From an uncultured bacterium (GTDB taxonomy: Bacteria > Abyssobacteria > SURF-5), in assembly GCA_964607485.1 (NCBI GenBank), contig CAZSKP010000028.1, forward strand, positions 38,087-63,786: a DNA stretch of 25,700 nt. Direction: 5' to 3'. Numbering within the stretch: the first letter of the stretch is position 1; every line of letters starts with the position of its first letter. Positions 1 to 24,801 of the stretch are shown piece by piece. The translations under genes and the position numbers were made by a program. Below the pieces are notes generated by a model. The model did no database searches and had not been told where the DNA came from. It saw nothing but the letters and a program-made list of their open reading frames with translations.

Positions 1-1222
1 GTTCTCTCAAGAGCGGCATTATGTCGGTGCGGAAATGCGTCTGAATCTCACCGGAAACTCGCCATGCCTTCGCCCAATAGTGGTTATGATAAATCGTGTT
101 GACGGAATATATAAACACAGCGGCGCAAGGGAGCAGTGATTTGAGCCTTTGCCATCGGGTAATGCTCGGCTGAAAAGAGAGTAATTGTCCCAGGATCATG
201 CAGAATCCGATAGAGGGCAGGTAATTCCAACGGCTTCCAGCCAGGTCTCCATACCCGTATACGCCAGTCATTATCGCAATAGGGATTGCAGTTACGACGA
301 TCCATGCAACCCCGAGAACGATTGCGATTCTGGAATCCGCCCTCACAAGAAAAACAACCGCCAGCACCGCGAGAAAACAAGCTGCCACTAGCGGCAGCCA
401 CTCTGAGATCGCGCCTACACCGTAATGAGGAACCACCAGGCTTCCGAAGAGGACTGCATAATTCAGCAAGATGTTCGGATCGATGATTGAAGGCAAGTCG
501 GGCGAACTGATCCCGTGATGGCGCAGGAATGCCGCTCTTGCCGTCCAACAGCCGAATAGAACAAGAAAATATAGAAAACCCACAACCACCGGCAACAGGA
601 TGTGCCGGACCTCGAATCTTTTTTTCAAAAGCAAAACAGCCGACCATATTGCGGCAATGGCCGGAAGCGTGGCAGCGGGCTCCTTTGACAACAGCGACAA
701 TATGGCAGACACGAAACAGAGCAAAACATATTGCATTTTCTTCGTGTTTAAGAAACCGGTCAAGGACAGGAGCGATATTAAGACAAACAGTGTATACACG
801 CTGTCAAAGAGACAGCACGGCCAAAGCACCGCTTCAAGGTGGCCGGTGTATACCGAAAAAATGCAGGCGGTCAAGAATGCGGTTCGTTCTCGAAGAACTT
901 TACCGACCAGGAAATAGACGAGAACGCCATTGCCGATATGAAGGGCAAGTGTTAAGGCATGCCAACACGCCGGCGCTGATCCCAAGAGTTTATACAATGC
1001 AACCCACATTATCACGGGAACCGGCCTATAGAAGTAAGCAGACTGCCGAAGGCCAAGTGCGAAGAGGTTTTCCACCGACAGAACGAAGTTGGCGGCATGC
1101 AGATTGAACTCGAAGTCATCACCGAGAAATTGACCCCACAATTTGGGGAAGAAGACGATGAGATTGAGAATCGCTATCAAGAATATTTTTGACCGAACTC
1201 TTCCTTTCCAAACAGGCTTCAC
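1..1222 (-). CDS. TMTC-like / GT-C fold polytopic membrane glycosyltransferase (3' end runs off the window)
   Basis: Not in the ORF track because no stop falls in the window. Manual translation from GTG at 1222 (GGAGA upstream) is open for 407 codons: FLGDDF, FYRP, WHALTLALHIGN, HLEAVLW, LLSKE, RWNYLPSIGF, with many hydrophobic segments. These motifs are typical of TMTC-type O-mannosyltransferase membrane domains. Confidence 0.85.
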   Translation of the reverse strand, partial: MKPVWKGRVRSKIFLIAILNLIVFFPKLWGQFLGDDFEFNLHAANFVLSVENLFALGLRQSAYFYRPVPVIMWVALYKLLGSAPACWHALTLALHIGNGVLVYFLVGKVLRERTAFLTACIFSVYTGHLEAVLWPCCLFDSVYTLFVLISLLSLTGFLNTKKMQYVLLCFVSAILSLLSKEPAATLPAIAAIWSAVLLLKKRFEVRHILLPVVVGFLYFLVLFGCWTARAAFLRHHGISSPDLPSIIDPNILLNYAVLFGSLVVPHYGVGAISEWLPLVAACFLAVLAVVFLVRADSRIAIVLGVAWIVVTAIPIAIMTGVYGYGDLAGSRWNYLPSIGFCMILGQLLSFQPSITRWQRLKSLLPCAAVFIYSVNTIYHNHYWAKAWRVSGEIQTHFRTDIMPLLRE

Positions 1223-1428
1223 TGCGGTTCTCCCATTCTCGAAGCGGCGTACAATATGCTGGAGAGTTTTTTGATTTCTCCTGGGGGAAACGTTAATAGT
1301 CTAGATTTATCTCAGAAGAGCAGAAGGATTCACCGAGTTTCTATTGCGCGCTATGAGGGAGAGCGGTTCCTCTCTTCGTTTTTTGCTGGAGAATATCACA
1401 CGCATCTCCCCAAAATCAATCTTGTTTC

Positions 1429-2292
1429 TCAGAACGAGAGCTGTTTGAGGACCGGGGGCAGGCGTTGGAGGTCGAGGATCATCTCGGCGATGGTCTGGTA
1501 TCTGTCGGCGGGGTCTTTTTCGAGCGCTCGCAGCGTCACCTCGTCAAGTTGACGAGGAATCTTCTTCTCGACGTAGGAAGGCGGCGCAGGCTTCGTCTTC
1601 TTGCTTATGACCATCTTCATGTAGAGTTCCCTATCCTGCTTCTTGTAGGGCAGGTCGCCTGTGAGAAGCTCATATATCACCAGCCCGAGCGAATAAATGT
1701 CGGTCCGGATGTCGAGGGCCTTGCCGCGGATTTGTTCCGGCGACATATAAAAGGGAGTTCCGGCCCGTGACTTCGGACTGCGCAGGCTCCAGAAATCTTC
1801 GGCGATGCTCAGGCCGAAGTCGGCGACCTTCACTTGACCTGTTTGGGATAGGAGAATATTCTCCGGCTTGATATCCATGTGGATGATGCTGTGGAATCGG
1901 CCGTCCTCCAGCTTGTGTTGATGAATGTAGTGCAGCCCCCCGCAAATCTTCAGCACGAGGCTCAGCGCGTCGTACAGGCTCAGTGTTCGTGACTGGATGA
2001 GGGGACGAAGGTTGCCGCCGTCCATGAACTCCATCAGCAGATAACCGATTCCGTTTTCCAGATGCAGCCCGTAGATGTCTATCACGTTGGGATGCTGGAG
2101 CTTTTTTGCCACCTTGACTTCTCGGGCGAGGTAGTGCGAGCGTTTGCGGTTATCGAGGAAATGTTCGGGTAGGACTTTGATGGCTATCTGGCGGCCGCCG
2201 CGTTCCTCTCGGGCGAGAAATACTCTGCCCATTCCTCCTTCGGCGATGGGCGAGATTATCGTGTAATTCCCTACTTTTCCTTCTATGGGCAT
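1429..2292 (-). CDS. Hanks-type Ser/Thr protein kinase, kinase domain only
   Basis: AEGGMG loop, IAIK, HMDIKPEN catalytic loop, DFG, GTPFYMSPEQ, DIYSLG; no transmembrane or sensor domain. Confidence 0.95.
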   Translation of the reverse strand: MPIEGKVGNYTIISPIAEGGMGRVFLAREERGGRQIAIKVLPEHFLDNRKRSHYLAREVKVAKKLQHPNVIDIYGLHLENGIGYLLMEFMDGGNLRPLIQSRTLSLYDALSLVLKICGGLHYIHQHKLEDGRFHSIIHMDIKPENILLSQTGQVKVADFGLSIAEDFWSLRSPKSRAGTPFYMSPEQIRGKALDIRTDIYSLGLVIYELLTGDLPYKKQDRELYMKMVISKKTKPAPPSYVEKKIPRQLDEVTLRALEKDPADRYQTIAEMILDLQRLPPVLKQLSF

Positions 2293-2305
2293 CCCGCGAT
2301 TATGC

Positions 2306-3298
2306 TCAGTCTTGTGCCATCCGCGCCCCTATTGGCGCGGCCTCCGACGGGCGAGCCGAGGGCAGAAGCAGGCGTTCGACTACTCTGTTGACGCACGACG
2401 CCGCCTTGCAGTCGGGCGCATATACGGTGAATGGGACCATCCTCTTCGCTGAAGTCCTGACGAGGGGGTCTTCGACAACCTGACCCAAGCACCGCGCATC
2501 TATCGAAAGATATTTTCCGATTATGTTCTTCAGCTTCTCGCCCAGCCGCGCGTCGCTTTCCGAGGTGGTCATGTTCACTATGATATTGGGCATGAAATGC
2601 GAAAGCATCGTCTTTGCCTCGAGCCAGCATTCGGGGTTCAACGTGGCGAGCTGGCCCATCAGCTCCTGGATTGCGGAGATTCCGGAATTGCTGTGAGGGT
2701 TCATCCCCCGCTTGAGAAGTTCCATCACGAGCGAGTATTGGCGGAAGGCCATGCTGAACCTTCTGTACAGGACGTTCTTCACAAACCCGTAGCTGTTGAC
2801 TATGGAGGTGGGTTCAGGGATGGTCACCAGGATTCCGTCATCGGTCACCGAAAAGAAATCCATCACGTCATACGAGCTGCCGGCGCCTATATCGATGATG
2901 ATGTGGTCGGCTCTTAATGAGCGAAGCCCGTTGATGATTTTCGCCTTCTGGGCGAACTTGGGATTGGCCTGACTGGGAACGTTTCCCGCGCTGCTTATGA
3001 ACCGGACTCCGTGGTAGCCGGTATCGAGCACGATTTCTTCCAGGGTCTTCACGCGGCGGGAGAGAAAGTCGCTGATGACGTACTTCGGCGCCTGCATGCC
3101 CAGGTAGGTGTGCAGATTCGCTCCGCCGAGGTCGGCATCGACGAGGATAACTTCTCTGCCCATCCTGCCGAGTTCGAGCGCGATAGCGCAGGCGATGACA
3201 CTTTTTCCAACTCCACCCTTGCAACCGGCAACCGTTATGATTCTGCGCGACGCCTCCGCGCCGTTTCTCTCCATCGACAGGCTTCCCCGCACTGACAC
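2306..3298 (-). CDS. MinD/FlhG-like ParA-family ATPase
   Basis: Deviant Walker A KGGVGKS, LVDADLGGANLHTYLG, IIDIGAG, PEPTSIVNSYGFVK. Start may instead be ATG at 3274. Confidence 0.92.
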   Translation of the reverse strand: MSVRGSLSMERNGAEASRRIITVAGCKGGVGKSVIACAIALELGRMGREVILVDADLGGANLHTYLGMQAPKYVISDFLSRRVKTLEEIVLDTGYHGVRFISSAGNVPSQANPKFAQKAKIINGLRSLRADHIIIDIGAGSSYDVMDFFSVTDDGILVTIPEPTSIVNSYGFVKNVLYRRFSMAFRQYSLVMELLKRGMNPHSNSGISAIQELMGQLATLNPECWLEAKTMLSHFMPNIIVNMTTSESDARLGEKLKNIIGKYLSIDARCLGQVVEDPLVRTSAKRMVPFTVYAPDCKAASCVNRVVERLLLPSARPSEAAPIGARMAQD

Positions 3299-3299
3299 G

Positions 3300-4523
3300 C
3301 TATCCCTTCTTGCGGCCTATGAATATAAGGTCTTCGAGATCTTCGATATCAAATTCTTCGACGGAGACGGGCTCATGGCTCTCATGTTCGCCCCTGACAA
3401 CCTTCTTGAAGTCGCCCAGTATTCCGCTCATCCTCGAAGACAGCATCTCCTGTTTTTCATGAAGCTCGAGGAGCTTTTCCTTGAGGCGCTCGACTTCCTC
3501 CAACTGCACGGGCGACTTGACGGGCTGCTCTTCGTCGCGCCTCGGCACAGGCCGGGCACGCTGAGGCTCCGGCGGTCGCGTGGTTGGCGTTACGGGCTCT
3601 TCTTTCCTCTCGGCAAACTCCGGCCTCGGCTCACCCGCCTCAATGGACTCACGGGCGCTCTTTATCTCTGCATCGGGAATCACCACGTCGCGCGCCTGGA
3701 ATTCGTCTGCAGGATCGTAGGCGGCAAGCTCCTCCATGGAATCCGGTTCGGAGACATCCGATTCATCCGACCTTTCCCGCTCAGTGGATTCAACCAGACG
3801 CTCCCGGTCGAATGGAGGAATGAAGTCGCCCTCACCCGGAAAAGCGGCGGGCGCCTTATCGCCGAAAGACTCGTCCAAGGCCCACTCGTCTTCCTCCTCC
3901 GTCGTCTCTTCTACAACAACCTCTCCGTCTGCTCTCACCTCGTCAATCGCTTCGACAGCCGGAGCCGCATCGTCGACTTCCTCCTCTTCGACTTCGGCCT
4001 CTTCCGTCTCCGATGGGCTGACATCCACCTCGATGGGTTTCATCCGAGCCATCAGCCACTGGTAGCGCGAGTTCCACTGTTCAAGTTGACGCGTGTCGAG
4101 AGCGCGCACGCCGGGCACTGCGTCGCCAATGGCATCCTTGAATATAATTGCGAACTCGCGAATCAGTGCCACTCCCTCTTCGTCAAGGTCCAGCCGTTCG
4201 CCCGAGACCGTTTCGAAATAGGCCAGCACTTGCCCGGCCGCCTGGGCGAGTTCTTCCTCACCCACCGTTTCGGCCTCCAGCTTGAGGAGAGAAACCTGGC
4301 TGGCGGCCTTCTGCACGAGCCAGGTGTAGTCGATTCCCTGTCGCACGGCGAGGTCAACCGATTGAAGAGTTTTCTGAAGAGTGATTAAGTGCAGGAAAAT
4401 ATTTCCGCTTTTTCTTGGCTGGGCAGGCGGTTTGAGGACAGGGCTGGATATAGAAGCCGCGGACGGGACTGGCCGCGGTTTTTTCCTGAACCATCTAAAA
4501 GGGTTGAGGGAAAATTTTGCCAT
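3300..4523 (-). CDS. Acidic hypothetical protein: N-terminal amphipathic segment, HPt-like helical region, long Glu/Pro-rich linker, C-terminal coiled coil
   Basis: 407-aa ATG ORF directly behind a consensus promoter and abutting the MinD-like gene. Domain description is by eye. Confidence 0.8.
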   Translation of the reverse strand: MAKFSLNPFRWFRKKPRPVPSAASISSPVLKPPAQPRKSGNIFLHLITLQKTLQSVDLAVRQGIDYTWLVQKAASQVSLLKLEAETVGEEELAQAAGQVLAYFETVSGERLDLDEEGVALIREFAIIFKDAIGDAVPGVRALDTRQLEQWNSRYQWLMARMKPIEVDVSPSETEEAEVEEEEVDDAAPAVEAIDEVRADGEVVVEETTEEEDEWALDESFGDKAPAAFPGEGDFIPPFDRERLVESTERERSDESDVSEPDSMEELAAYDPADEFQARDVVIPDAEIKSARESIEAGEPRPEFAERKEEPVTPTTRPPEPQRARPVPRRDEEQPVKSPVQLEEVERLKEKLLELHEKQEMLSSRMSGILGDFKKVVRGEHESHEPVSVEEFDIEDLEDLIFIGRKKG

Positions 4524-4597
4524 TCGGCTCGACTCCCTCTACCGTTCCGCCACAAGATATTGTGTATGTAGCTCCATGCTTCTCACAACTTGCAAAA

Positions 4598-4626
4598 ATT
4601 ATACCCAAGAAGAGAGAAAATGTCAA
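4598..4626 (-). promoter_or_regulatory. sigma70 promoter, perfect consensus
   Basis: Minus strand reads TTGACA-N17-TATAAT, about 75 nt upstream of the ATG at 4523. Confidence 0.85.
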
Positions 4627-4680
4627 AAATTGCCCAGAGACCAGCGAACGCGCTCCCGCGCATTCGCGCTCCAGGCCCCG

Positions 4681-5625
4681 CTATATCTCGACTTGCTCGA
4701 CAATATCCCGCAACACGGAGGCCGACCGTTTCAGGGCGACCAGTTCTTCTTCGGCCAAAGGCGATTCGAGAATGCGATGCACGCCCTCTCTGTTGAGTAT
4801 CGCCGGAACGCTCAAGGCTATGTCGTTGATTCCGAATTGGCCGTCCAGTGGCGTCGAGACGGTCATGACACCGTTCGAGTCTCTTATGATGGCTCCGATT
4901 ATGTTTTCGAGCGCAAGGCTGACAGCAAAATTCGTGGCGCCTTTCGATTCGATCACGTGATAGGCCGAGTCCTTTACGGCGTCGGAAATTCGCTGGCGCT
5001 CCTCGGCGCTGCAATCAAGCCCGCAGATGGAACAGAATTGAAGTATCGGGATTCCCGCGATGTGTGTCAGGCTCCACGCAGCCAGCTCGCTGTCTCCATG
5101 TTCTCCGAGTATGTAGGCATGAACGTTGCGCGAGTCCACCTGGCAGTGCTCGCTCAACATGAATCGAAAACGTGCGCTGTCGAGCACGGTGCCCGAGCCG
5201 ATTACCCGCGTCGCGGGCAGGCCCGACACTTTGTAAGCCACGTACGTGAGTATATCAACAGGATTGGTGACCATGACGATGATGGAGTCGCTGGTGTATC
5301 GCATGACCTGTGCGACGATGTCCTTGCATATCTTCGTGTTTCTCTGCACGAGGTCGAGCCTGGTCTCACCCGTCTTCTGCTTCGCCCCCGCCGTTATGAC
5401 GACGATGGCCGCTCCGGCGCAATCGGAGTAGTCCCCCGCCCTTACTTCCACGTAAGGAACGAACAACAGGCCGTGGTTGAGGTCCATCGCCTCGCCCTCG
5501 GCCTTCTCCCTGTTCACATCCACGAGGACGATCTCGCCGAACAGCCCGCTGCGCATCAGCGTGAACGCAAGCGTCGAGCCGACCGCGCCGGCTCCGACTA
5601 TCACGATCTTCGCCCGTTCTGCCAC
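4681..5625 (-). CDS. ldh: L-lactate dehydrogenase
   Basis: GAGAVG Rossmann motif, AGAKQKTGETRLDL (Gln specificity residue of LDH rather than Arg of MDH), NPVD, GTVLDSARF, GEHGDS. GTG at 5625 follows GGAGAG; the track start is 5640. Confidence 0.92.
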   Translation of the reverse strand: MAERAKIVIVGAGAVGSTLAFTLMRSGLFGEIVLVDVNREKAEGEAMDLNHGLLFVPYVEVRAGDYSDCAGAAIVVITAGAKQKTGETRLDLVQRNTKICKDIVAQVMRYTSDSIIVMVTNPVDILTYVAYKVSGLPATRVIGSGTVLDSARFRFMLSEHCQVDSRNVHAYILGEHGDSELAAWSLTHIAGIPILQFCSICGLDCSAEERQRISDAVKDSAYHVIESKGATNFAVSLALENIIGAIIRDSNGVMTVSTPLDGQFGINDIALSVPAILNREGVHRILESPLAEEELVALKRSASVLRDIVEQVEI

Positions 5626-5662
5626 GGCCTCTCCGTTCACTCAACGCATCGTTAATGCTTTA

Positions 5663-5733
5663 TGTCATTCCCATGAAAGTGGGAATCTAGTCTCCAGAAA
5701 GAACTCTGGATTCCCGTTTTCACGGGAATGACA
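5663..5733. repeat. REP-like doublet of ATTCCC-N8-GGGAAT units in inverted orientation
   Basis: TGTCATTCCCATGAAAGTGGGAATC...GATTCCCGTTTTCACGGGAATGACA; each arm is itself palindromic. Confidence 0.85.
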
Positions 5734-5812
5734 GTGAGTGCGAGGAAACCAACACGTTACCCAAGCTGTTCCTCGGACAAAGCGCCAGTCGCCTGCGAAG
5801 ACTCTTGATACT

Positions 5813-7249
5813 TCACACCTCGATGCCCGCCATCCGCTTCGCCCTGTTGGCGTACTCCTCCAGCGGCGCCTCGAACAGTATCATCATCTTCTGGGCTTCC
5901 ATCGAGCCCTCGGCGTGCACGGTCGTCACCTCCATGTGACCGTGCTCGGCGGATGCGACCATTCTGTGCGCCAACTGGATCAGGCGCAGGCGGTCCTCGG
6001 TGGTGAACCTGTCGGACCCGCCGAGGTAATGCTTAATGTATTCGTGCGTATCCGGATTCTGCCAGTCCCTGTATGTCGGTGCGGTCGTGATAATCCCGCC
6101 GGCAACATCCTGGATCAGTTGGATGAACGTGTGATAGCCGCTCGCGAAGTGAAGCTTCGCCATGTTGGCTATCAAAGGATTTGGAACGGCTATGTCGCCG
6201 TACATGACCGGGTCCTTCGCGGCGGCCTGCGTGAGCGCCTTCAGGGTTTCGACGTACGCGGCCATATCGGCCAGTTTGCCCCGTATATGCCCGGCTCGTT
6301 CGAGCCCGTTGGCCTCGGCCATCGCGATGCCGCAGCCGGCCATCGTCTCGACAATGGGAATCTTGTAACTTATGGCAGTGAAGCGGTGGAAACTCGCGAA
6401 GGTGTACGCCAGCAGCATCGAGAACTGCCATTCGCCACACATGAACACGCGCTCCCACGGGACGAAGACATTGTCGAAAACTATCATCGCCTCCGACAAG
6501 CTGCGTATCGGCGCTCCATAGGGGAACTCGTGCGGGCTCAGATCGCCCCGCCCCGGCCGACATATCATAGTGATGCCCTCTGCGTTCGCGGGAACGGCGA
6601 AGCTGAGCGCGTAGTCGCCCTCGTCCTCGCGCATCTGCCGCGTGGGCGTGACGATTATCTCGTTCGCCACGGGCGCGCTCGTTATGTGCAGCTTAGCCCC
6701 CTTGACGACGATGCCGTCCTTCTGTTTATCCACCACGCGGACATAATAATCGGGGTGCTTCTGCTTCGAGGGCGGCTTGCTTCTGTCGCCCTTCGCGTCG
6801 GTGACGGCGCCACACATGGCCGAATCGTTCTTCCTTATGTGGCGCAGAAAATTCTTCGCGCGCTCCTTGTACTCCTCGTTGCCCATCCGGTCGGCGACGA
6901 CCATGACCGCGTTCAGGCAATCGGTGCCGACGTCCTTGCCGAACGGCAACCCGCCAGTGAGCCTGATGGACTCGCCGATCATCCTGCTCCTTTTGTCAAG
7001 GTCCTCGACCGTCTTCGGCGTCTTGAAAAAACGGCTTATCGGCTCGCCCGTCTCGTCATCCTTCGCCACAAACAGGTCTCGCACCTTCGGGTCCTTCGCC
7101 TCCGTCAGCACGAAATCCTGGGCGACCGTCTCGACGGTAACCTTGAGGATGGGGTGCGTCGTCACGTCCTCGACCTTCTCGCCCAGAATATACACGCGCC
7201 TTCCATCGCGCAGACTTTCGCGGTACTCATCGGGAGTCCTGAGCGCCAT
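5813..7249 (-). CDS. 4-hydroxybutyryl-CoA dehydratase / 4-hydroxyphenylacetate 3-hydroxylase (AbfD/HpaB) family flavoprotein
   Basis: YRESLRDGRRVYILGEKV, AVTDAKGDRSK, GIVVKGAKLHIT, EAMIVFDNVFVPWERVF, HAEGS. ATG at 7249 follows GGAGG; the track start is 7276. Confidence 0.9.
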   Translation of the reverse strand: MALRTPDEYRESLRDGRRVYILGEKVEDVTTHPILKVTVETVAQDFVLTEAKDPKVRDLFVAKDDETGEPISRFFKTPKTVEDLDKRSRMIGESIRLTGGLPFGKDVGTDCLNAVMVVADRMGNEEYKERAKNFLRHIRKNDSAMCGAVTDAKGDRSKPPSKQKHPDYYVRVVDKQKDGIVVKGAKLHITSAPVANEIIVTPTRQMREDEGDYALSFAVPANAEGITMICRPGRGDLSPHEFPYGAPIRSLSEAMIVFDNVFVPWERVFMCGEWQFSMLLAYTFASFHRFTAISYKIPIVETMAGCGIAMAEANGLERAGHIRGKLADMAAYVETLKALTQAAAKDPVMYGDIAVPNPLIANMAKLHFASGYHTFIQLIQDVAGGIITTAPTYRDWQNPDTHEYIKHYLGGSDRFTTEDRLRLIQLAHRMVASAEHGHMEVTTVHAEGSMEAQKMMILFEAPLEEYANRAKRMAGIEV

Positions 7250-11760: not shown

Positions 11761-11990
11761 TAATTTACTGCTGCACGCACGTTACTGGACGCGGGGCGCC
11801 GTTATCGAATTCTTTTCGGCTGCCTAGAGATTTCCCGGATCATGAGCGGAAGAAGTATGCGCAGAACCCGCCGGCGGGCGGTAAGACGCCTGCGCGTGTC
11901 GCCATCTGTCACGGTTCGGAGCCGGACGATAGCGGCCGGATGCAGGATGAATGCCCAGTCGGGTCGCACTGCCATTAGGGAGAGTGCACG

Positions 11991-12197
11991 GTGAAACGAT
12001 TCTATTACTCGGCAGTTCGGAACAACAAAGAATGCGAGGGCATTATCCGGGCCGATTCGATCGATTCGGCCAAGAGCAAGCTGCTGGAAGACGGCTACGA
12101 GGAGATAACCCTGAGCATTTTGAGCTCTCTTCCCGCTAATTTCGACGAAGAAAAGCGATCCGAAGAGAACGGCCCCCCGCAGTCCTCTCGCAAGTAG
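11991..12197 (+). CDS. Small protein resembling the N-terminal domain of PilC/GspF
   Basis: AGGGAG RBS, GTG start; MKRFYYSAVRNNKECEGIIRADSIDSAKSKLLEDGY fits the F-x-Y-x-A...G-x-I-x-A-x-S...A...L...G pattern. Confidence 0.65.
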   Translation: MKRFYYSAVRNNKECEGIIRADSIDSAKSKLLEDGYEEITLSILSSLPANFDEEKRSEENGPPQSSRK

Positions 12198-12400
12198 CCG
12201 CGCATGTGACCTCTCCGGCCATTTTCCAATGTTCCCCCTGATTATTCCTTCCTTTAGGCACAATAGGGTCGTTCTATTCCGCCATGCTTGCTTTTGGGCT
12301 CGTCGGTGTGGTACATTCCCACGTGCGCCATAAATGGCGCCGATGCGATACCGGTTTATTCCCAAGATTCATCAGCAGAGATGAGGGTGTAACGACCGCC

Positions 12401-13780
12401 ATGCATAAACAGCGGATACTGATAGTCGAGGACGAAGACATCCAGCGAAGGCAGTTGGCCCGCGCTCTGGCCGGGCCCGACCGCGTTATTGCGGAGGCAC
12501 GCTCGGGCGAGGATGCGTTGAAGTCTTTGGCCGGGGACCGTTTCGACCTCGTCATTTCCGACATAAGAATGCCCGGGATCTCGGGGCTCGATCTGGTGAG
12601 GAGGATTAAGAGCATTTATCCGCATACGTCGCTGTTGTTGATAACCGCCCATGGAACGGTTGACTCGGCAATCGAGGCGATGAAGATCGGAGTAGAGGAC
12701 TACTTGACAAAGCCGTTCGGAAGCGATGAGTTGGAGATCATAATCGAGAAGATCTTTGAGAAGCGTGAGCTCCTTGCTGAGAACATCCTGCTGAGAGAAC
12801 AGCTTGAGTCGCAGTTCGGCTTTGAAAATATAATCAGCAAGAACCACAAGATGCAGAAAGTATTCCGGACGATCAGTTCCGTCGCCCCCACCGACAGCAC
12901 GATCGTGATACAGGGAGAAACGGGCACGGGAAAGGAACTGATAGCGAAGGCGATTCATTTCAACAGTCTCCGAAAGGACAAACGCTTCGTTGCGGTCGAT
13001 TGCGGCGCCCTGCCCGACACGCTGCTCGATACCGAACTCTTCGGCCACGAGAAAGGCGCGTTCACAAGCGCGACCGCCCGGAGAATCGGAAAGCTGGAAT
13101 ACGCCGACCACGGCACACTGTTCCTGGACGAGGTCAGCAATATGTCTCCGGCCACGCAGATGAAGGTGCTGCGTGCACTCGAGGAGAAGCAGTTTCAGCG
13201 ACTCGGCAGCAACGAATCCATCAAAGTAGATATAAGGCTCATAGCCGCGACCAATACCGACCTGCGGGCGCTCGTGCGCGACGGCAGGTTCAGGCAAGAC
13301 TTGTACTATCGGCTGAGCGTTATCCCTCTGAATATCCCCCCTCTGCGCGAACGCCTCGAAGACATTCCGCTCCTTGCCCGGCATTTTCTGAAAATGTACG
13401 GCCAAAGGATGGGCAGAAACGTCGATGAGATTACTCACGACGCGGTGAAGAAGCTCATGAAATACGACTGGCCGGGCAACGTGCGTGAGTTGGAGAACGT
13501 CATGGAACGAGCGGTGGCCACAGTGGCCGGAAACTGCATAGATGAGAGCGACCTTCCCGACGTGGGAGAGTCCGGCGGCGGAATGCCTTCTGCGAATCAA
13601 TCCCTCATAGACGTACCTTTGCCGGAAAGGACGGAGGAGCTGGAGAAGACATACCTCATGGAACTTCTCGGGCGCTACGGCGGCAAGACCGACCTGGCGG
13701 CCGAAAAGGCAGGTCTGACGCTGAGAACGCTCCAAAGAAAATTGAAAAATTACGGAATCAAGTCCGAGAGCTTTAAATAG
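12401..13780 (+). CDS. sigma54-dependent response regulator (NtrC/AtoC family)
   Basis: Receiver domain (ILIVEDE, ISDIRMPG, YLTKPF), AAA+ domain (GETGTGKE, GAFTSA, LFLDEV, WPGNVRELEN), Fis-type HTH. ATG at 12401 starts the receiver domain. Confidence 0.95.
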   Translation: MHKQRILIVEDEDIQRRQLARALAGPDRVIAEARSGEDALKSLAGDRFDLVISDIRMPGISGLDLVRRIKSIYPHTSLLLITAHGTVDSAIEAMKIGVEDYLTKPFGSDELEIIIEKIFEKRELLAENILLREQLESQFGFENIISKNHKMQKVFRTISSVAPTDSTIVIQGETGTGKELIAKAIHFNSLRKDKRFVAVDCGALPDTLLDTELFGHEKGAFTSATARRIGKLEYADHGTLFLDEVSNMSPATQMKVLRALEEKQFQRLGSNESIKVDIRLIAATNTDLRALVRDGRFRQDLYYRLSVIPLNIPPLRERLEDIPLLARHFLKMYGQRMGRNVDEITHDAVKKLMKYDWPGNVRELENVMERAVATVAGNCIDESDLPDVGESGGGMPSANQSLIDVPLPERTEELEKTYLMELLGRYGGKTDLAAEKAGLTLRTLQRKLKNYGIKSESFK

Positions 13781-23083: not shown

Positions 23084-23268
23084 GGCAGCCAAGTGCTCTC
23101 ACAAGGATACTGAGACATTGTCTTCACGGCGTGTTACACGGATATAATATCGGGAGTATGCTACAATGAAAGCACATGTCACGATTCAATGGAAAGACAG
23201 CTTGCGAGAAACGGTCAGAGGAGCATGTCACTACCACAGAAGCTGGGACCGTTATCGGAGGCAGCCCG

Positions 23269-24801
23269 ATGAAGAGAAACACGTTTTTGGTTAGCCTTTG
23301 CATCGTGTCTCTTCTGGGAGCCTCATCGTTGATTTTCGCCACAAAATTGGGCGTTGGAACCGCTTACGATTCGGCCATCTATATCGGCGCCGCTCGAAAC
23401 CTGCTGGATGGCAAGGGTCTGACCATACCATTTATCAGCAACGAAGCAGAGCCGATGACCCACTATCCGCCATTGTTTCCGGTTTTGCTGTCGGCAATTG
23501 GATTTCTCGGCATAGACCCGATGGCGGCCGCCAGGTGGGTCAATGTATTTGTTTTTGGAGCCAACATCTTTCTGGTCGGCCTTGTGATATCCAGATTCAC
23601 TCACGGTTCTCCTTGGACCGCTCTCTTTGGTTCGCTTCTGACCGCAAGTTCCGCCGTTGTGCTGTGGATTCACCTGTGGGCGTCCACAGACCCATTGTTC
23701 ATCTTACTGGGGCTCGCGGGCATTTTCCTGATGCATGAATATCTGGAAAAGAAAGGCCAACCGCTTCTCATATGCTCTGCTGTTTTGATTGCGTTGGCTT
23801 TTCTCACAAGATATTCGGGGATTGCGCTCGTATGCACGGGGGCAATAGGCATTCTGTTGCTAAGTCCCAAAACATTATTTGAGAAGGCTCGGGATTCGTG
23901 CGTGTTTCTTGCTATCAGTTCTTTGCCGGTGGCGCTCTGGCTCGTGAGAAACGTTGCCTTGTCGGGAAACGCCACAGACCGAAGCGCAGCTTTTCACCCT
24001 ATTACGGCAACCCATCTTCGCCTTGCGCTTGAGAACATTTCAGCATGGATATTACCCACATCGGTTCCCGACACCATTCGGATGATCTCTGCGCTCATGT
24101 TCGTTACGGTGGCGGCGGCGGCACATGTGTTCTTGTCGCTGAGAAAAAAGAAACAGGCTGAAGGCGACGCTGCCACTCATTATCCATCCAGGTTCCACTC
24201 TCTGGCAGCTATTTTCATTATCACGTATGGCGCGCTCTTGGTTATCTCCATTTCGTTTTTCGATACGTACATACCGCTCGATGACCGAATCCTGTCGCCG
24301 ATACATGTTTTTGGGATGATTATCACTTTATGCATCGGATATCAACTGCTCAGTCTCGCGGAGGGAATGAAACTTGTCAAAATCTCTGCCGTTGCCGTTT
24401 GCACGCTGTTCTTGGCATTCTATCTTTCCAAAGGCGAATCTCTCGTCACGAGCGCTCATGACACTGGACTCGGCTTGGCCGGCAGAGAATGGCAAGATAA
24501 TCCCGACGTCAAGCAATTGAGGGAGCTTACTCCGGATGTCCATATTTATAGCAACAAACCATATGCGATCTACCTGCTGTCGGGAAGATCCGCTTCCCGG
24601 GTTCCTGGCAATCTTAATGACGAAACGGGAAAGACAAACGAGAGCTATCCCGCCGAAGTGGCGGCGATGAATGAGCAGCTCAGAAATAAGAAAGCGGTAG
24701 TTATCAATTTCGACGTTATCCCACCGCAATGGGGCATGCTCCTTGAAAAAGAGTCTGACGATCGGCCACGCCTATCTCCCGCTGACCGGTCGGCGGAATG
24801 A
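23269..24801 (+). CDS. ArnT/PMT-like GT-C polytopic membrane glycosyltransferase
   Basis: YDSAIYIGAARNL, HYPPLFP, STDPLF, LTRYSG, RILSP and more than 10 hydrophobic segments; ATG at 23269 follows GGAGG. The track start is 23176. Confidence 0.8.
   Translation: MKRNTFLVSLCIVSLLGASSLIFATKLGVGTAYDSAIYIGAARNLLDGKGLTIPFISNEAEPMTHYPPLFPVLLSAIGFLGIDPMAAARWVNVFVFGANIFLVGLVISRFTHGSPWTALFGSLLTASSAVVLWIHLWASTDPLFILLGLAGIFLMHEYLEKKGQPLLICSAVLIALAFLTRYSGIALVCTGAIGILLLSPKTLFEKARDSCVFLAISSLPVALWLVRNVALSGNATDRSAAFHPITATHLRLALENISAWILPTSVPDTIRMISALMFVTVAAAAHVFLSLRKKKQAEGDAATHYPSRFHSLAAIFIITYGALLVISISFFDTYIPLDDRILSPIHVFGMIITLCIGYQLLSLAEGMKLVKISAVAVCTLFLAFYLSKGESLVTSAHDTGLGLAGREWQDNPDVKQLRELTPDVHIYSNKPYAIYLLSGRSASRVPGNLNDETGKTNESYPAEVAAMNEQLRNKKAVVINFDVIPPQWGMLLEKESDDRPRLSPADRSAE

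Follow-up and report, generated by a model that had tools for sequence, protein, structure and literature searches.

Gene organization and conservation of the locus

In this study, we analyzed a 25,700-nt stretch of the genome of an uncultured bacterium (GTDB lineage Bacteria; Abyssobacteria; SURF-5), hereafter the window (contig C28:38087-63786 of GenBank assembly GCA_964607485.1, which comprises 4.7 Mb and is 97.5% complete), and focused on three consecutive minus-strand genes that encode a 407-aa protein, here called the adaptor, an ATPase and a Ser/Thr protein kinase (Table 1). A previous sequence-only reading had described the three genes as tightly packed behind a perfect TTGACA-N17-TATAAT promoter, with no flagellar, min, par or che genes in the window, and all of these points held. 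The open reading frame (ORF) coordinates leave 1 nt between the adaptor and ATPase genes (position 3299) and 13 nt between the ATPase and kinase genes (2293-2305). The promoter (4626..4598) was the sole 12/12 match among eight promoter-like sites in window positions 1-6000, for which shuffled sequences gave an expectation of 3.3 sites (sd 1.9), and none of the eight lay between the ATPase and kinase genes. Pfam analysis of 20 further window ORFs and of the flanking genes revealed no flagellar, min, par or che gene. The sequence GGGAG is found 9 nt ahead of the adaptor ATG, and an alternative ATG for the ATPase gene lies 21 nt inside its GTG start.

The distribution of the adaptor was narrow. 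It was present in nine of the ten genomes of the family (our own genome and eight of nine others) and in none of 31 genomes outside it; the only family genome lacking it is 77% complete, and its ATPase gene is truncated where the contig stops. A search of 5.8 billion protein clusters, which scored only the 8000 candidates with the most shared words, gave 34 relatives at E<=1e-3, own protein included. The named homologues are called 'hypothetical protein' and come from bins of Candidatus Abyssobacteria/Abyssubacteria or 'Poribacteria', and two of the 34 bear the Joint Genome Institute (JGI) label 'CheA'. An ortholog of the ATPase (64-74% identity) was found in all ten family genomes, one of which (G001) has two copies. 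The sister-family genome G010, the only one sampled, had no such ortholog, its best match showing 35% identity over the N-terminal half only.

Gene order pointed to a pair rather than a trio. The adaptor gene was located directly upstream of the ATPase gene in all eight loci that could be assessed, that is, where the downstream side of the adaptor is visible on the contig (the window and 7/7 others); in one further genome (G008), the adaptor and ATPase genes are both at contig ends, each on a contig of its own. The kinase gene directly followed the ATPase gene in four of the eight loci only (the window, G007, G009 and G003). Thus, of the three-gene module suggested by the sequence-only reading, the adaptor-ATPase part is kept at every assessable locus and the complete trio at half of them, and we consider the pair to be the conserved core.

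Table 1. Features of the adaptor-ATPase-kinase locus (window coordinates; residue numbers refer to the encoded protein)
Feature	Position	Strand	Basis
Sigma-70-type promoter (TTGACA, 17-nt spacer, TATAAT)	4598..4626	-	promoter scan of window 1-6000
Adaptor gene (407 aa, ATG start)	3300..4523	-	ORF list
Adaptor, basic/aromatic N-terminal peptide (residues 1-45)	4389..4523	-	alignments; low pLDDT
Adaptor, five-helix bundle, CheA-P1-like (HPt fold; residues 32-163)	4035..4430	-	AF2, Foldseek, VIA-align
Adaptor, acidic disordered linker, poorly conserved (residues 164-265)	3729..4034	-	alignment, AF2
Adaptor, short conserved motif YDP..VRDVVI.DAEIKSARE (residues 266-295)	3639..3728	-	alignments
Adaptor, long helix with heptad-like pattern (residues 338-378)	3390..3512	-	alignment, AF2
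Adaptor, predicted C-terminal docking peptide, end IFIGRKKG (residues 385-407)	3303..3371	-	complex model; pattern search; kinase fusions
ATPase gene (330 aa, GTG start)	2306..3298	-	ORF list; Pfam/NCBIfam
ATPase, deviant Walker A GCKGGVGKS (residues 25-33), signature lysine K27	3200..3226	-	sequence; alignment
ATPase, helical insertion (residues ~181-233)	2600..2758	-	gap in own FlhG alignment; AF2 model
Kinase gene (287 aa, ATG start; stand-alone Hanks-type Ser/Thr, HMD catalytic loop)	1429..2292	-	ORF list; Pfam/NCBIfam

The ATPase and the adaptor

The assignment of the 330-aa protein to the MinD/FlhG ATPases, already made from the sequence, was supported by family profiles and fold comparison alike. 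Three Pfam families (PF10609, PF01656 and PF13614; ParA/CbiA/AAA_31, MinD-type matches) scored above cut-off, and residues K27, K32, D54, D56 and D136 of the Walker A, A' and B motifs were invariant in 63 relatives. The AlphaFold2 (AF2) model had a predicted local distance difference test score (pLDDT) of 87.8 and a predicted template modeling score (pTM) of 0.86, and gave 416 Foldseek matches at E<=1e-3, headed by FlhG, FleN, MinD and Soj. The closest solved relative was FlhG 4rz2 (sequence E 4.8e-25; Foldseek E 1.2e-18); FleN 5j1j had the same Foldseek E-value (1.2e-18), template modeling (TM) scores reached 0.89 for these two entries, and FleN 8p53 and MinD came next. Identity to FlhG/FleN in the fold alignments was 24-25%.

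Several lines of evidence separated this ATPase from flagellar FlhG itself. First, our genome contains a separate flagellar cluster, flhF-flhG-fliM, on contig C1, and the FlhG encoded there carries DQAQKLR near the N-terminus and an amphipathic C-terminus, neither of which was found in the window ATPase by alignment; according to the available text of 10.1101/2022.03.19.484964, DQAxxLR is the name of the N-terminal motif of FlhG that activates FlhF. Second, the window ATPase has an insertion of about 52 residues that is not in own FlhG and is modeled as three helices (189-199, 210-220 and 222-234) with pLDDT >90. Third, the MinD equivalog models remained far below their cut-offs (TIGR01968, 59.5 vs 212.9; TIGR01969, 87.8 vs 201.75), and the match was confined to residues 19-169. 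Finally, in a maximum-likelihood (ML) tree, 35 insertion-bearing sequences were split from own FlhG and two other MinD-like paralogs with support 92/94, and the 21 sequences of this bacterial family formed the starred clade (100/99). Canonical FlhG identity was therefore rejected, in agreement with the outcome that the phylogeny would have under the sequence-only reading. Judged by its sequence and invariant motifs, the protein is a catalytically intact MinD/FlhG-type ATPase that is distinct from FlhG. A MinD-like paralog of 480 aa (G000:C17; L020:1015-2457) has an MshEN-type N-terminal domain, which binds cyclic di-GMP, fused to the ATPase domain.

The adaptor matched no Pfam or NCBIfam family, and its profile found no match among Protein Data Bank (PDB) sequences at E<=10. 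Weak matches to PFam54_60 in 12 of 17 members fell on the coiled-coil helix and were read as noise, and the best Protein Atlas scores (0.86-0.88) were taken as leads only; in one of the clusters, 20% of the proteins carried Hpt. Alignments of 17 and 27 homologues and an AF2 model (mean pLDDT 62) nevertheless defined a clear succession of parts. The N-terminal peptide has six invariant residues (N7, P36, K38, S39, G40 and F43) and is followed by a helical bundle with pLDDT of about 90 over residues 40-160. The middle of the protein is acidic, in line with the earlier description of an acidic scaffold, and appears largely disordered, with pLDDT <50 over residues 167-263. D279, I282, D284 and E286 are invariant in the motif that follows, and the helix at 341-378 (pLDDT up to 93) is probably a coiled coil. 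The C-terminus is near-invariant and reads ...EDLED[IL]IFIGRxKG.

The bundle resembled the P1 domain of the chemotaxis kinase CheA, a histidine phosphotransfer (HPt) fold. Foldseek placed 1i5n_A first (E 4.5e-3, TM 0.77), with no match at E<=1e-3, and VIA-align, which is independent of Foldseek, gave Z 16.3 for both 1i5n_A and 3kyj_A, above the value of about 13 that helical bundles reach by chance, with 126 residues aligned (126/128 for 1i5n_A); five of its top six rows were CheA P1 domains. None of the 17 members matched Pfam Hpt (PF01627) at E<=5, and a His on the second helix (67-87), where the phospho-accepting position was located solely by the fold-alignment offset, occurred in 1 of 17 sequences (P0030) and not in the window adaptor. 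Because of the missing Hpt match and the rarity of this His, we describe the adaptor as a modular protein with a predicted CheA-P1-like bundle that appears to lack a conserved phospho-accepting His.

The C-terminal peptide, the kinase and the wider ATPase subfamily

A back-translated pattern of the C-terminal peptide had 10 matches in 8 of the 10 family genomes, and the reversed control had none. Eight matches were adaptors, that of our own genome being the only one there, and the other two were P0155 (G005:C96) and P0156 (G001:C178). P0155 (L017:1951-2373) is a 140-aa coiled-coil protein that ends in IFIGRKKG and shares the long helix of the adaptor. It adjoins a 758-aa VWA-FHA-DUF6982 protein (L017:2497-4773); FHA domains read phospho-threonine, so this neighbor would fit a network of Ser/Thr kinases. 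A metagenome scan with the same pattern yielded 25 stretches, of which L126 (adaptor and ATPase) and L135 (a partial peptide-bearing protein) were relevant. The others were rejected as short unrelated frames. In 17 of them, on unrelated contigs (L125, L127, L128, L130, L131 and L137-L148), we observed a near-identical short frame ending ...LLVCQSAIFIGSKKG, that is, in IFIGSKKG, which was matched because the pattern allowed Ser; it is probably a conserved element in a chance reading frame.

P0156 connects the peptide with the kinase. The window kinase is a bare domain (Pkinase over residues 10-266 of 287; PF00069 178 bits vs a cut-off of 31.7, E 2.5e-52) with the motifs IAIK, HMDIKPEN and DFG. 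Of 41 members of its lineage, 35 have HRD in the catalytic loop, three HMD (the window kinase included) and one HTD, and two had no match. P0156 consists of a kinase domain of this lineage (68% identity to the window kinase), an acidic linker and the ending ...EKFIFIGRKKG, and its gene is located directly upstream of an ATPase paralog (65% identity), which is followed in turn by a 287-aa kinase. When P0156 was used as a database query, six clusters of full-length fusions (P0157-P0162; 528-627 aa) were recovered that share its layout and its ending and whose kinase domains (65-70% identity) are of this lineage, as well as a variant (P0163) and a short form (P0196). A hidden Markov model (HMM) of the adaptor matched the last 25-29 residues of the fusions and, weakly, a helix similar to the first part of the coiled coil. 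In the ML tree, the ATPase paralog beside P0156 belongs to a sub-clade nested among the adaptor-linked ATPases (97/88); since groups A and B of this tree had been set according to bands of identity with the query, group B as a clade is not independent evidence. Since its lineage is fused to an acidic tether and the predicted docking peptide in sister genomes, the kinase may be another client of the ATPase or may regulate it. The view that the kinase belongs with the pair is thus upheld with respect to a link, and not with respect to a fixed third gene. The stand-alone 287-aa kinases end in a conserved tail of their own, LPPVLKxLSF (window 1429-1470).

We then modeled two copies of the ATPase with ATP/Mg and adaptor residues 335-407, using custom alignments. 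The ipSAE was 0.74 (runs 0.70, 0.74 and 0.74), past a mark that 116 of 157 solved complexes and 2 of 215 mismatched pairs attain, under a calibration of the tool from which our custom alignments and ligands differ; the best of three controls scored 0.00. The runs shared at least 91% of contacts, with a partner pLDDT of 58-61. In the model, adaptor residues 385-393 and 396-407 touch both ATPase subunits: 161-174 (the helix after switch II), 201-210 (part of the insertion) and 246-264 of copy 1, and 63-74, 102-106 and 282-293 of copy 2. ATPase residues 161-174 align to MinD ~145-158, which we take to be the MinE/MinC-binding region at the MinD dimer interface, and the adaptor peptide is unrelated to MinE. 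The model thus supports a placement of the adaptor C-terminal peptide across the interface of the ATP-bound dimer. Together with the adjacency of the genes at all eight loci, it favors the earlier proposal that the 407-aa protein is the partner of the ATPase.

The insertion-bearing ATPase is not restricted to this family. We found 926 proteins of the subfamily at E<=1e-20 among 4857 candidates, with members in Desulfobacterota, Nitrospirota, Acidobacteriota, Myxococcota (including Myxococcus and Anaeromyxobacter), Bdellovibrionota and others. A scan of genome contigs confirmed 515 of 601 candidate stretches, 80 of which were kept; neighbors were surveyed at 66 of these 80 loci, after 14 without a called ATPase gene, mostly high-GC Myxococcota/Acidobacteriota contigs, had been dropped, and were identified by Pfam on one representative per neighbor cluster. 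The most frequent neighbor was a DnaJ + HTH_25 protein, found at 26 of 66 loci (22 at +1, 2 at +2 and 2 fused to the ATPase). It was followed by a protein with cyclic nucleotide (cNMP)-binding and PilZ domains just upstream of the ATPase (16 of 66), by PilZ proteins downstream (6 + 3 of 66) and by ScpB upstream (6 of 66). The 407-aa adaptor was present at none of these other-phylum loci. The extreme C-terminus of the cNMP-PilZ proteins (...EQNLLWSLWDSL...; neighbor examples within L025-L104 are L046:685-1851 and L104:7919-8575) is also conserved, acidic and hydrophobic, and hence hints that docking by a C-terminal peptide might be general across the subfamily. A literature search found no characterized member, and the subfamily is apparently both widespread and uncharacterized.

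The remaining genes of the window encode L-lactate dehydrogenase, an HpaB-like enzyme, an FMN reductase (old-yellow-enzyme-type), RsmI, NadE, a nitrilase, a sigma-54 activator, 2-hydroxyglutaryl-CoA-dehydratase-like subunits and others. The lactate dehydrogenase gene upstream of the locus is retained at two other family loci. Downstream of the kinase, after a gap of 206 nt, lies a membrane protein gene (2-1222, minus strand) with a weak PMT_2 match and without a match at the other family loci compared. The gap contains a terminator-like hairpin with a T-run (1355-1376) in plus-strand orientation, for which no plus-strand gene to end was evident. The sigma-54 activator, an NtrC-type response regulator (12284-13780, plus strand), is located 8 kb away; an activator of this type, FleQ, is bound by FleN (entries 7ejw and 8p53), which is among the nearest relatives of the ATPase with a solved structure. 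Two window ORFs, 23176-24801 (plus strand, 541 aa) and 11802-12365 (minus strand, 187 aa), had no Pfam family at E<=1e-5.

A candidate docking module and its alternatives

Building on the observed gene order, domain anatomy, conservation and fusions, we consider it somewhat better than an even chance that the locus encodes a lineage-restricted module around a nucleotide-gated docking ATPase, with the adaptor as a client and the kinase as a client or regulator. The adaptor would consist of a basic N-peptide, a His-less P1-like bundle, a long acidic tether, a dimerizing helix and a docking peptide, and the ATP dimer of the ATPase would clasp its last ~20 residues (...EDLEDLIFIGRKKG). The predicted position of this peptide is over the dimer interface, at the site used by MinE/MinC on MinD, where it would also touch the insertion of the subfamily. 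The C-terminus may thus serve as an address that is read by the ATPase and carried by exchangeable clients, namely the P1-like adaptor and a Hanks kinase. Adaptor and kinase would then assemble on the ATPase under the control of ATP binding and hydrolysis, and this gated assembly would place or switch something in the cell. We speak of positioning by analogy with the ATPase family, because the analysis revealed neither a cargo nor, on the ATPase, a handle for membrane or DNA.

A number of observations weigh against this reading. With regard to the contact, it comes from a model run under conditions that differ from the calibration of the tool, and its site is the generic partner site of MinD-type dimers; since solved complexes exist there (MinD-MinE 3r9i and 3r9j, FleN-FleQ 7ejw), the placement of the peptide may be partly learned. 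The model covered adaptor residues 335-407, and the adaptor also has its conserved N-peptide; in the available text of PMC11407121, known ParA/MinD partners mostly act via their N-terminal regions. P0155 and the L135 frame carry the peptide with no ATPase beside them. With regard to the ATPase, its tail is unconserved, weakly amphipathic and of low pLDDT, and alignment and a helical-moment check revealed no membrane-targeting helix and no evident DNA-binding tail, so that no surface for ParA/MinD-style patterning could be identified. With regard to the kinase, a convergent gene takes its place at four loci (G006, G005, G004 and G001:C73). Three of these genomes (G004, G005 and G006) have an orthologous kinase (70-73% identity, ~287 aa) elsewhere, with no ATPase within ~6 kb and no neighbors in common. 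These genomes have 10-23 kinases matching at E<=1e-30. Only a single fusion was observed beside an ATPase, and the assembly concerned is fragmented (830 contigs, 3% contamination).

The points on the kinase are also what would be expected if the adaptor-ATPase pair alone were the unit and the kinase a bystander, located downstream of it by chance in some genomes. We regard this as unlikely: the same kinase lineage is fused to the C-terminal peptide of the adaptor in at least six protein clusters, one fusion is encoded directly upstream of an ATPase paralog that is itself followed by a stand-alone kinase, and in the window the kinase gene follows after 13 nt with no promoter-like site between.

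Another possibility is that the ATPase, as a paralog of FlhG with its own adaptor, is a second regulator of flagellar number or placement that acts on the motor or on FlhF. FlhF was above cut-off in all ten family genomes, and our genome has flagellar genes of the flhA/flhF/flhG/fliM type. The best sequence and fold matches of the ATPase are FlhG and FleN (4rz2 and 5j1j), and the fold of the adaptor is otherwise known from CheA. On the other hand, the genome has a canonical flhF-flhG-fliM cluster at another place, the features that distinguish its FlhG (DQAxxLR and the C-terminal amphipathic helix) are missing from the window ATPase, and the window has no flagellar genes. Moreover, the subfamily is also found in Myxococcus and Anaeromyxobacter, which have no flagella, and its neighbors in other phyla are PilZ, DnaJ-HTH_25 and ScpAB proteins rather than flagellar ones. 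A flagellar role therefore seems to us to have only a small chance of being correct.

The C-terminal peptide could also be a membrane or pole address, in which case the ATPase would bind, if at all, the N-terminal basic peptide of the adaptor. Such a role could account for the hydrophobic tail residues followed by RKK, for the two peptide-bearing proteins without an adjoining ATPase gene and for the conserved, basic and aromatic N-terminus with its helical moment of 0.50-0.71, and it would agree with the N-terminal binding described for many partners in the available text of PMC11407121. We nevertheless find it improbable, since an acidic run precedes the peptide, its helical hydrophobic moment is low (0.20-0.34), the complex model passes and every control scores 0.00, and two different peptide-bearing architectures are encoded directly upstream of this ATPase clade.

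Our genome, at its completeness of 97.5%, had no match to MCPsignal, CheW or the CheA dimerization domain, and its one Hpt match lies elsewhere than at the adaptor locus; MCPsignal was found in 3 of 10 family genomes. These bacteria seem to have flagella and, for the most part, no classical chemotaxis; the accessible part of the description of Abyssubacteria (PMC6121073) reports motility and putative chemotaxis genes and, in that part, does not mention MinD or kinases. The idea that the module positions chemoreceptor arrays in the manner of ParC-ParP/PpfA-TlpT, with the P1-like domain as a link to CheA, draws on the fold of the bundle and on the JGI name of 2 of 34 homologues, and is very improbable, as the domains of an array had no match in our own genome and MCPsignal occurs in 3/10 family genomes vs 9/10 for the adaptor; judged by gene content, this rules out an array role for most family genomes.

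A more far-reaching possibility, to which as a whole we give little weight, goes beyond the docking module and combines two ideas: a hybrid signaling device in place of a lost chemotaxis kinase, and a subfamily that generally reads C-terminal peptides. In these flagellated bacteria, mostly without methyl-accepting chemotaxis protein (MCP), CheW and CheA, the His-less P1 domain may have been kept as a domain to which a eukaryote-like Ser/Thr kinase docks or which is its substrate, and the MinD-type dimer may join the P1 domain and the kinase in a nucleotide-dependent way via the shared C-terminal peptide. More widely, the subfamily in Desulfobacterota, Nitrospirota, Acidobacteriota and Myxococcota may gather lineage-specific signaling clients, which may include PilZ/cNMP receptors, DnaJ-HTH proteins and kinases.

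We compared the proposed docking module with known systems. FlhG/FleN (4rz2, 4rz3, 5j1j and 8p53) share with the ATPase the deviant Walker A, the MinD-type core and, as a likeness, partner switching through a dimer-dependent surface; the window ATPase differs in its three-helix insertion of ~52 residues, its place outside the flagellar cluster and the separate existence of own FlhG. In MinD-MinE/MinC (3r9i, 3r9j and 4v02), a short partner peptide likewise lies over the ATP-dimer interface, as predicted here, whereas the peptide here would be the extreme C-terminus of the partner and the ATPase has no membrane-targeting sequence. FimL of Pseudomonas, which has degenerate HPt domains and is related to the N-terminal part of ChpA, is likewise an HPt-type fold that serves as a scaffold without the phospho-accepting His, and it is not, to our knowledge, a partner of a MinD-type ATPase. 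McdA-McdB and PomXYZ have, as far as we know, no kinase component, and ParC-ParP and PpfA-TlpT are systems in which ParA-like ATPases place chemoreceptor arrays. The latter two likewise combine an A/D ATPase with an adaptor carrying a chemotaxis-type domain, a comparison based in part on PMC11407121, whereas the adaptor here is P1-like rather than CheW-like and occurs in genomes that mostly lack chemoreceptors, CheW and CheA. The partners in McdA-McdB and PomXYZ are similarly co-encoded, largely disordered, partly coiled-coil and lineage-specific, but according to the same part of PMC11407121 these systems use the nucleoid surface and the N-terminal regions of the partners act, whereas the contact predicted here is C-terminal. 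A literature search found no described system composed of such an ATPase, adaptor and kinase, as the sequence-only reading had supposed. On this in silico evidence, the module appears to be a variation on the theme of a ParA/MinD ATPase and its partner, with an unusual docking mode suggested by modeling and a link to a kinase suggested by fusions.

ParA/MinD ATPases are the main known organizers of the bacterial cell interior, and new types of partner have revealed new cargo or new logic. If the predicted contact holds, the present case would be unusual in that the partner docks by its extreme C-terminus and not by its N-terminus. With one docking peptide on two heads that are unrelated to each other, the CheA-P1-like bundle and the Hanks kinase, the ATPase would act as a hub whose clients can be exchanged. 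The literature search also returned no characterized member of the large FlhG-like subfamily to which the ATPase belongs and which is found in at least four other phyla. This significance derives entirely from genome comparison and predicted structures of uncultured organisms. If the contact is true, a tag of ~20 residues and its reader would offer a compact handle on this subfamily and, possibly, on synthetic recruitment systems.

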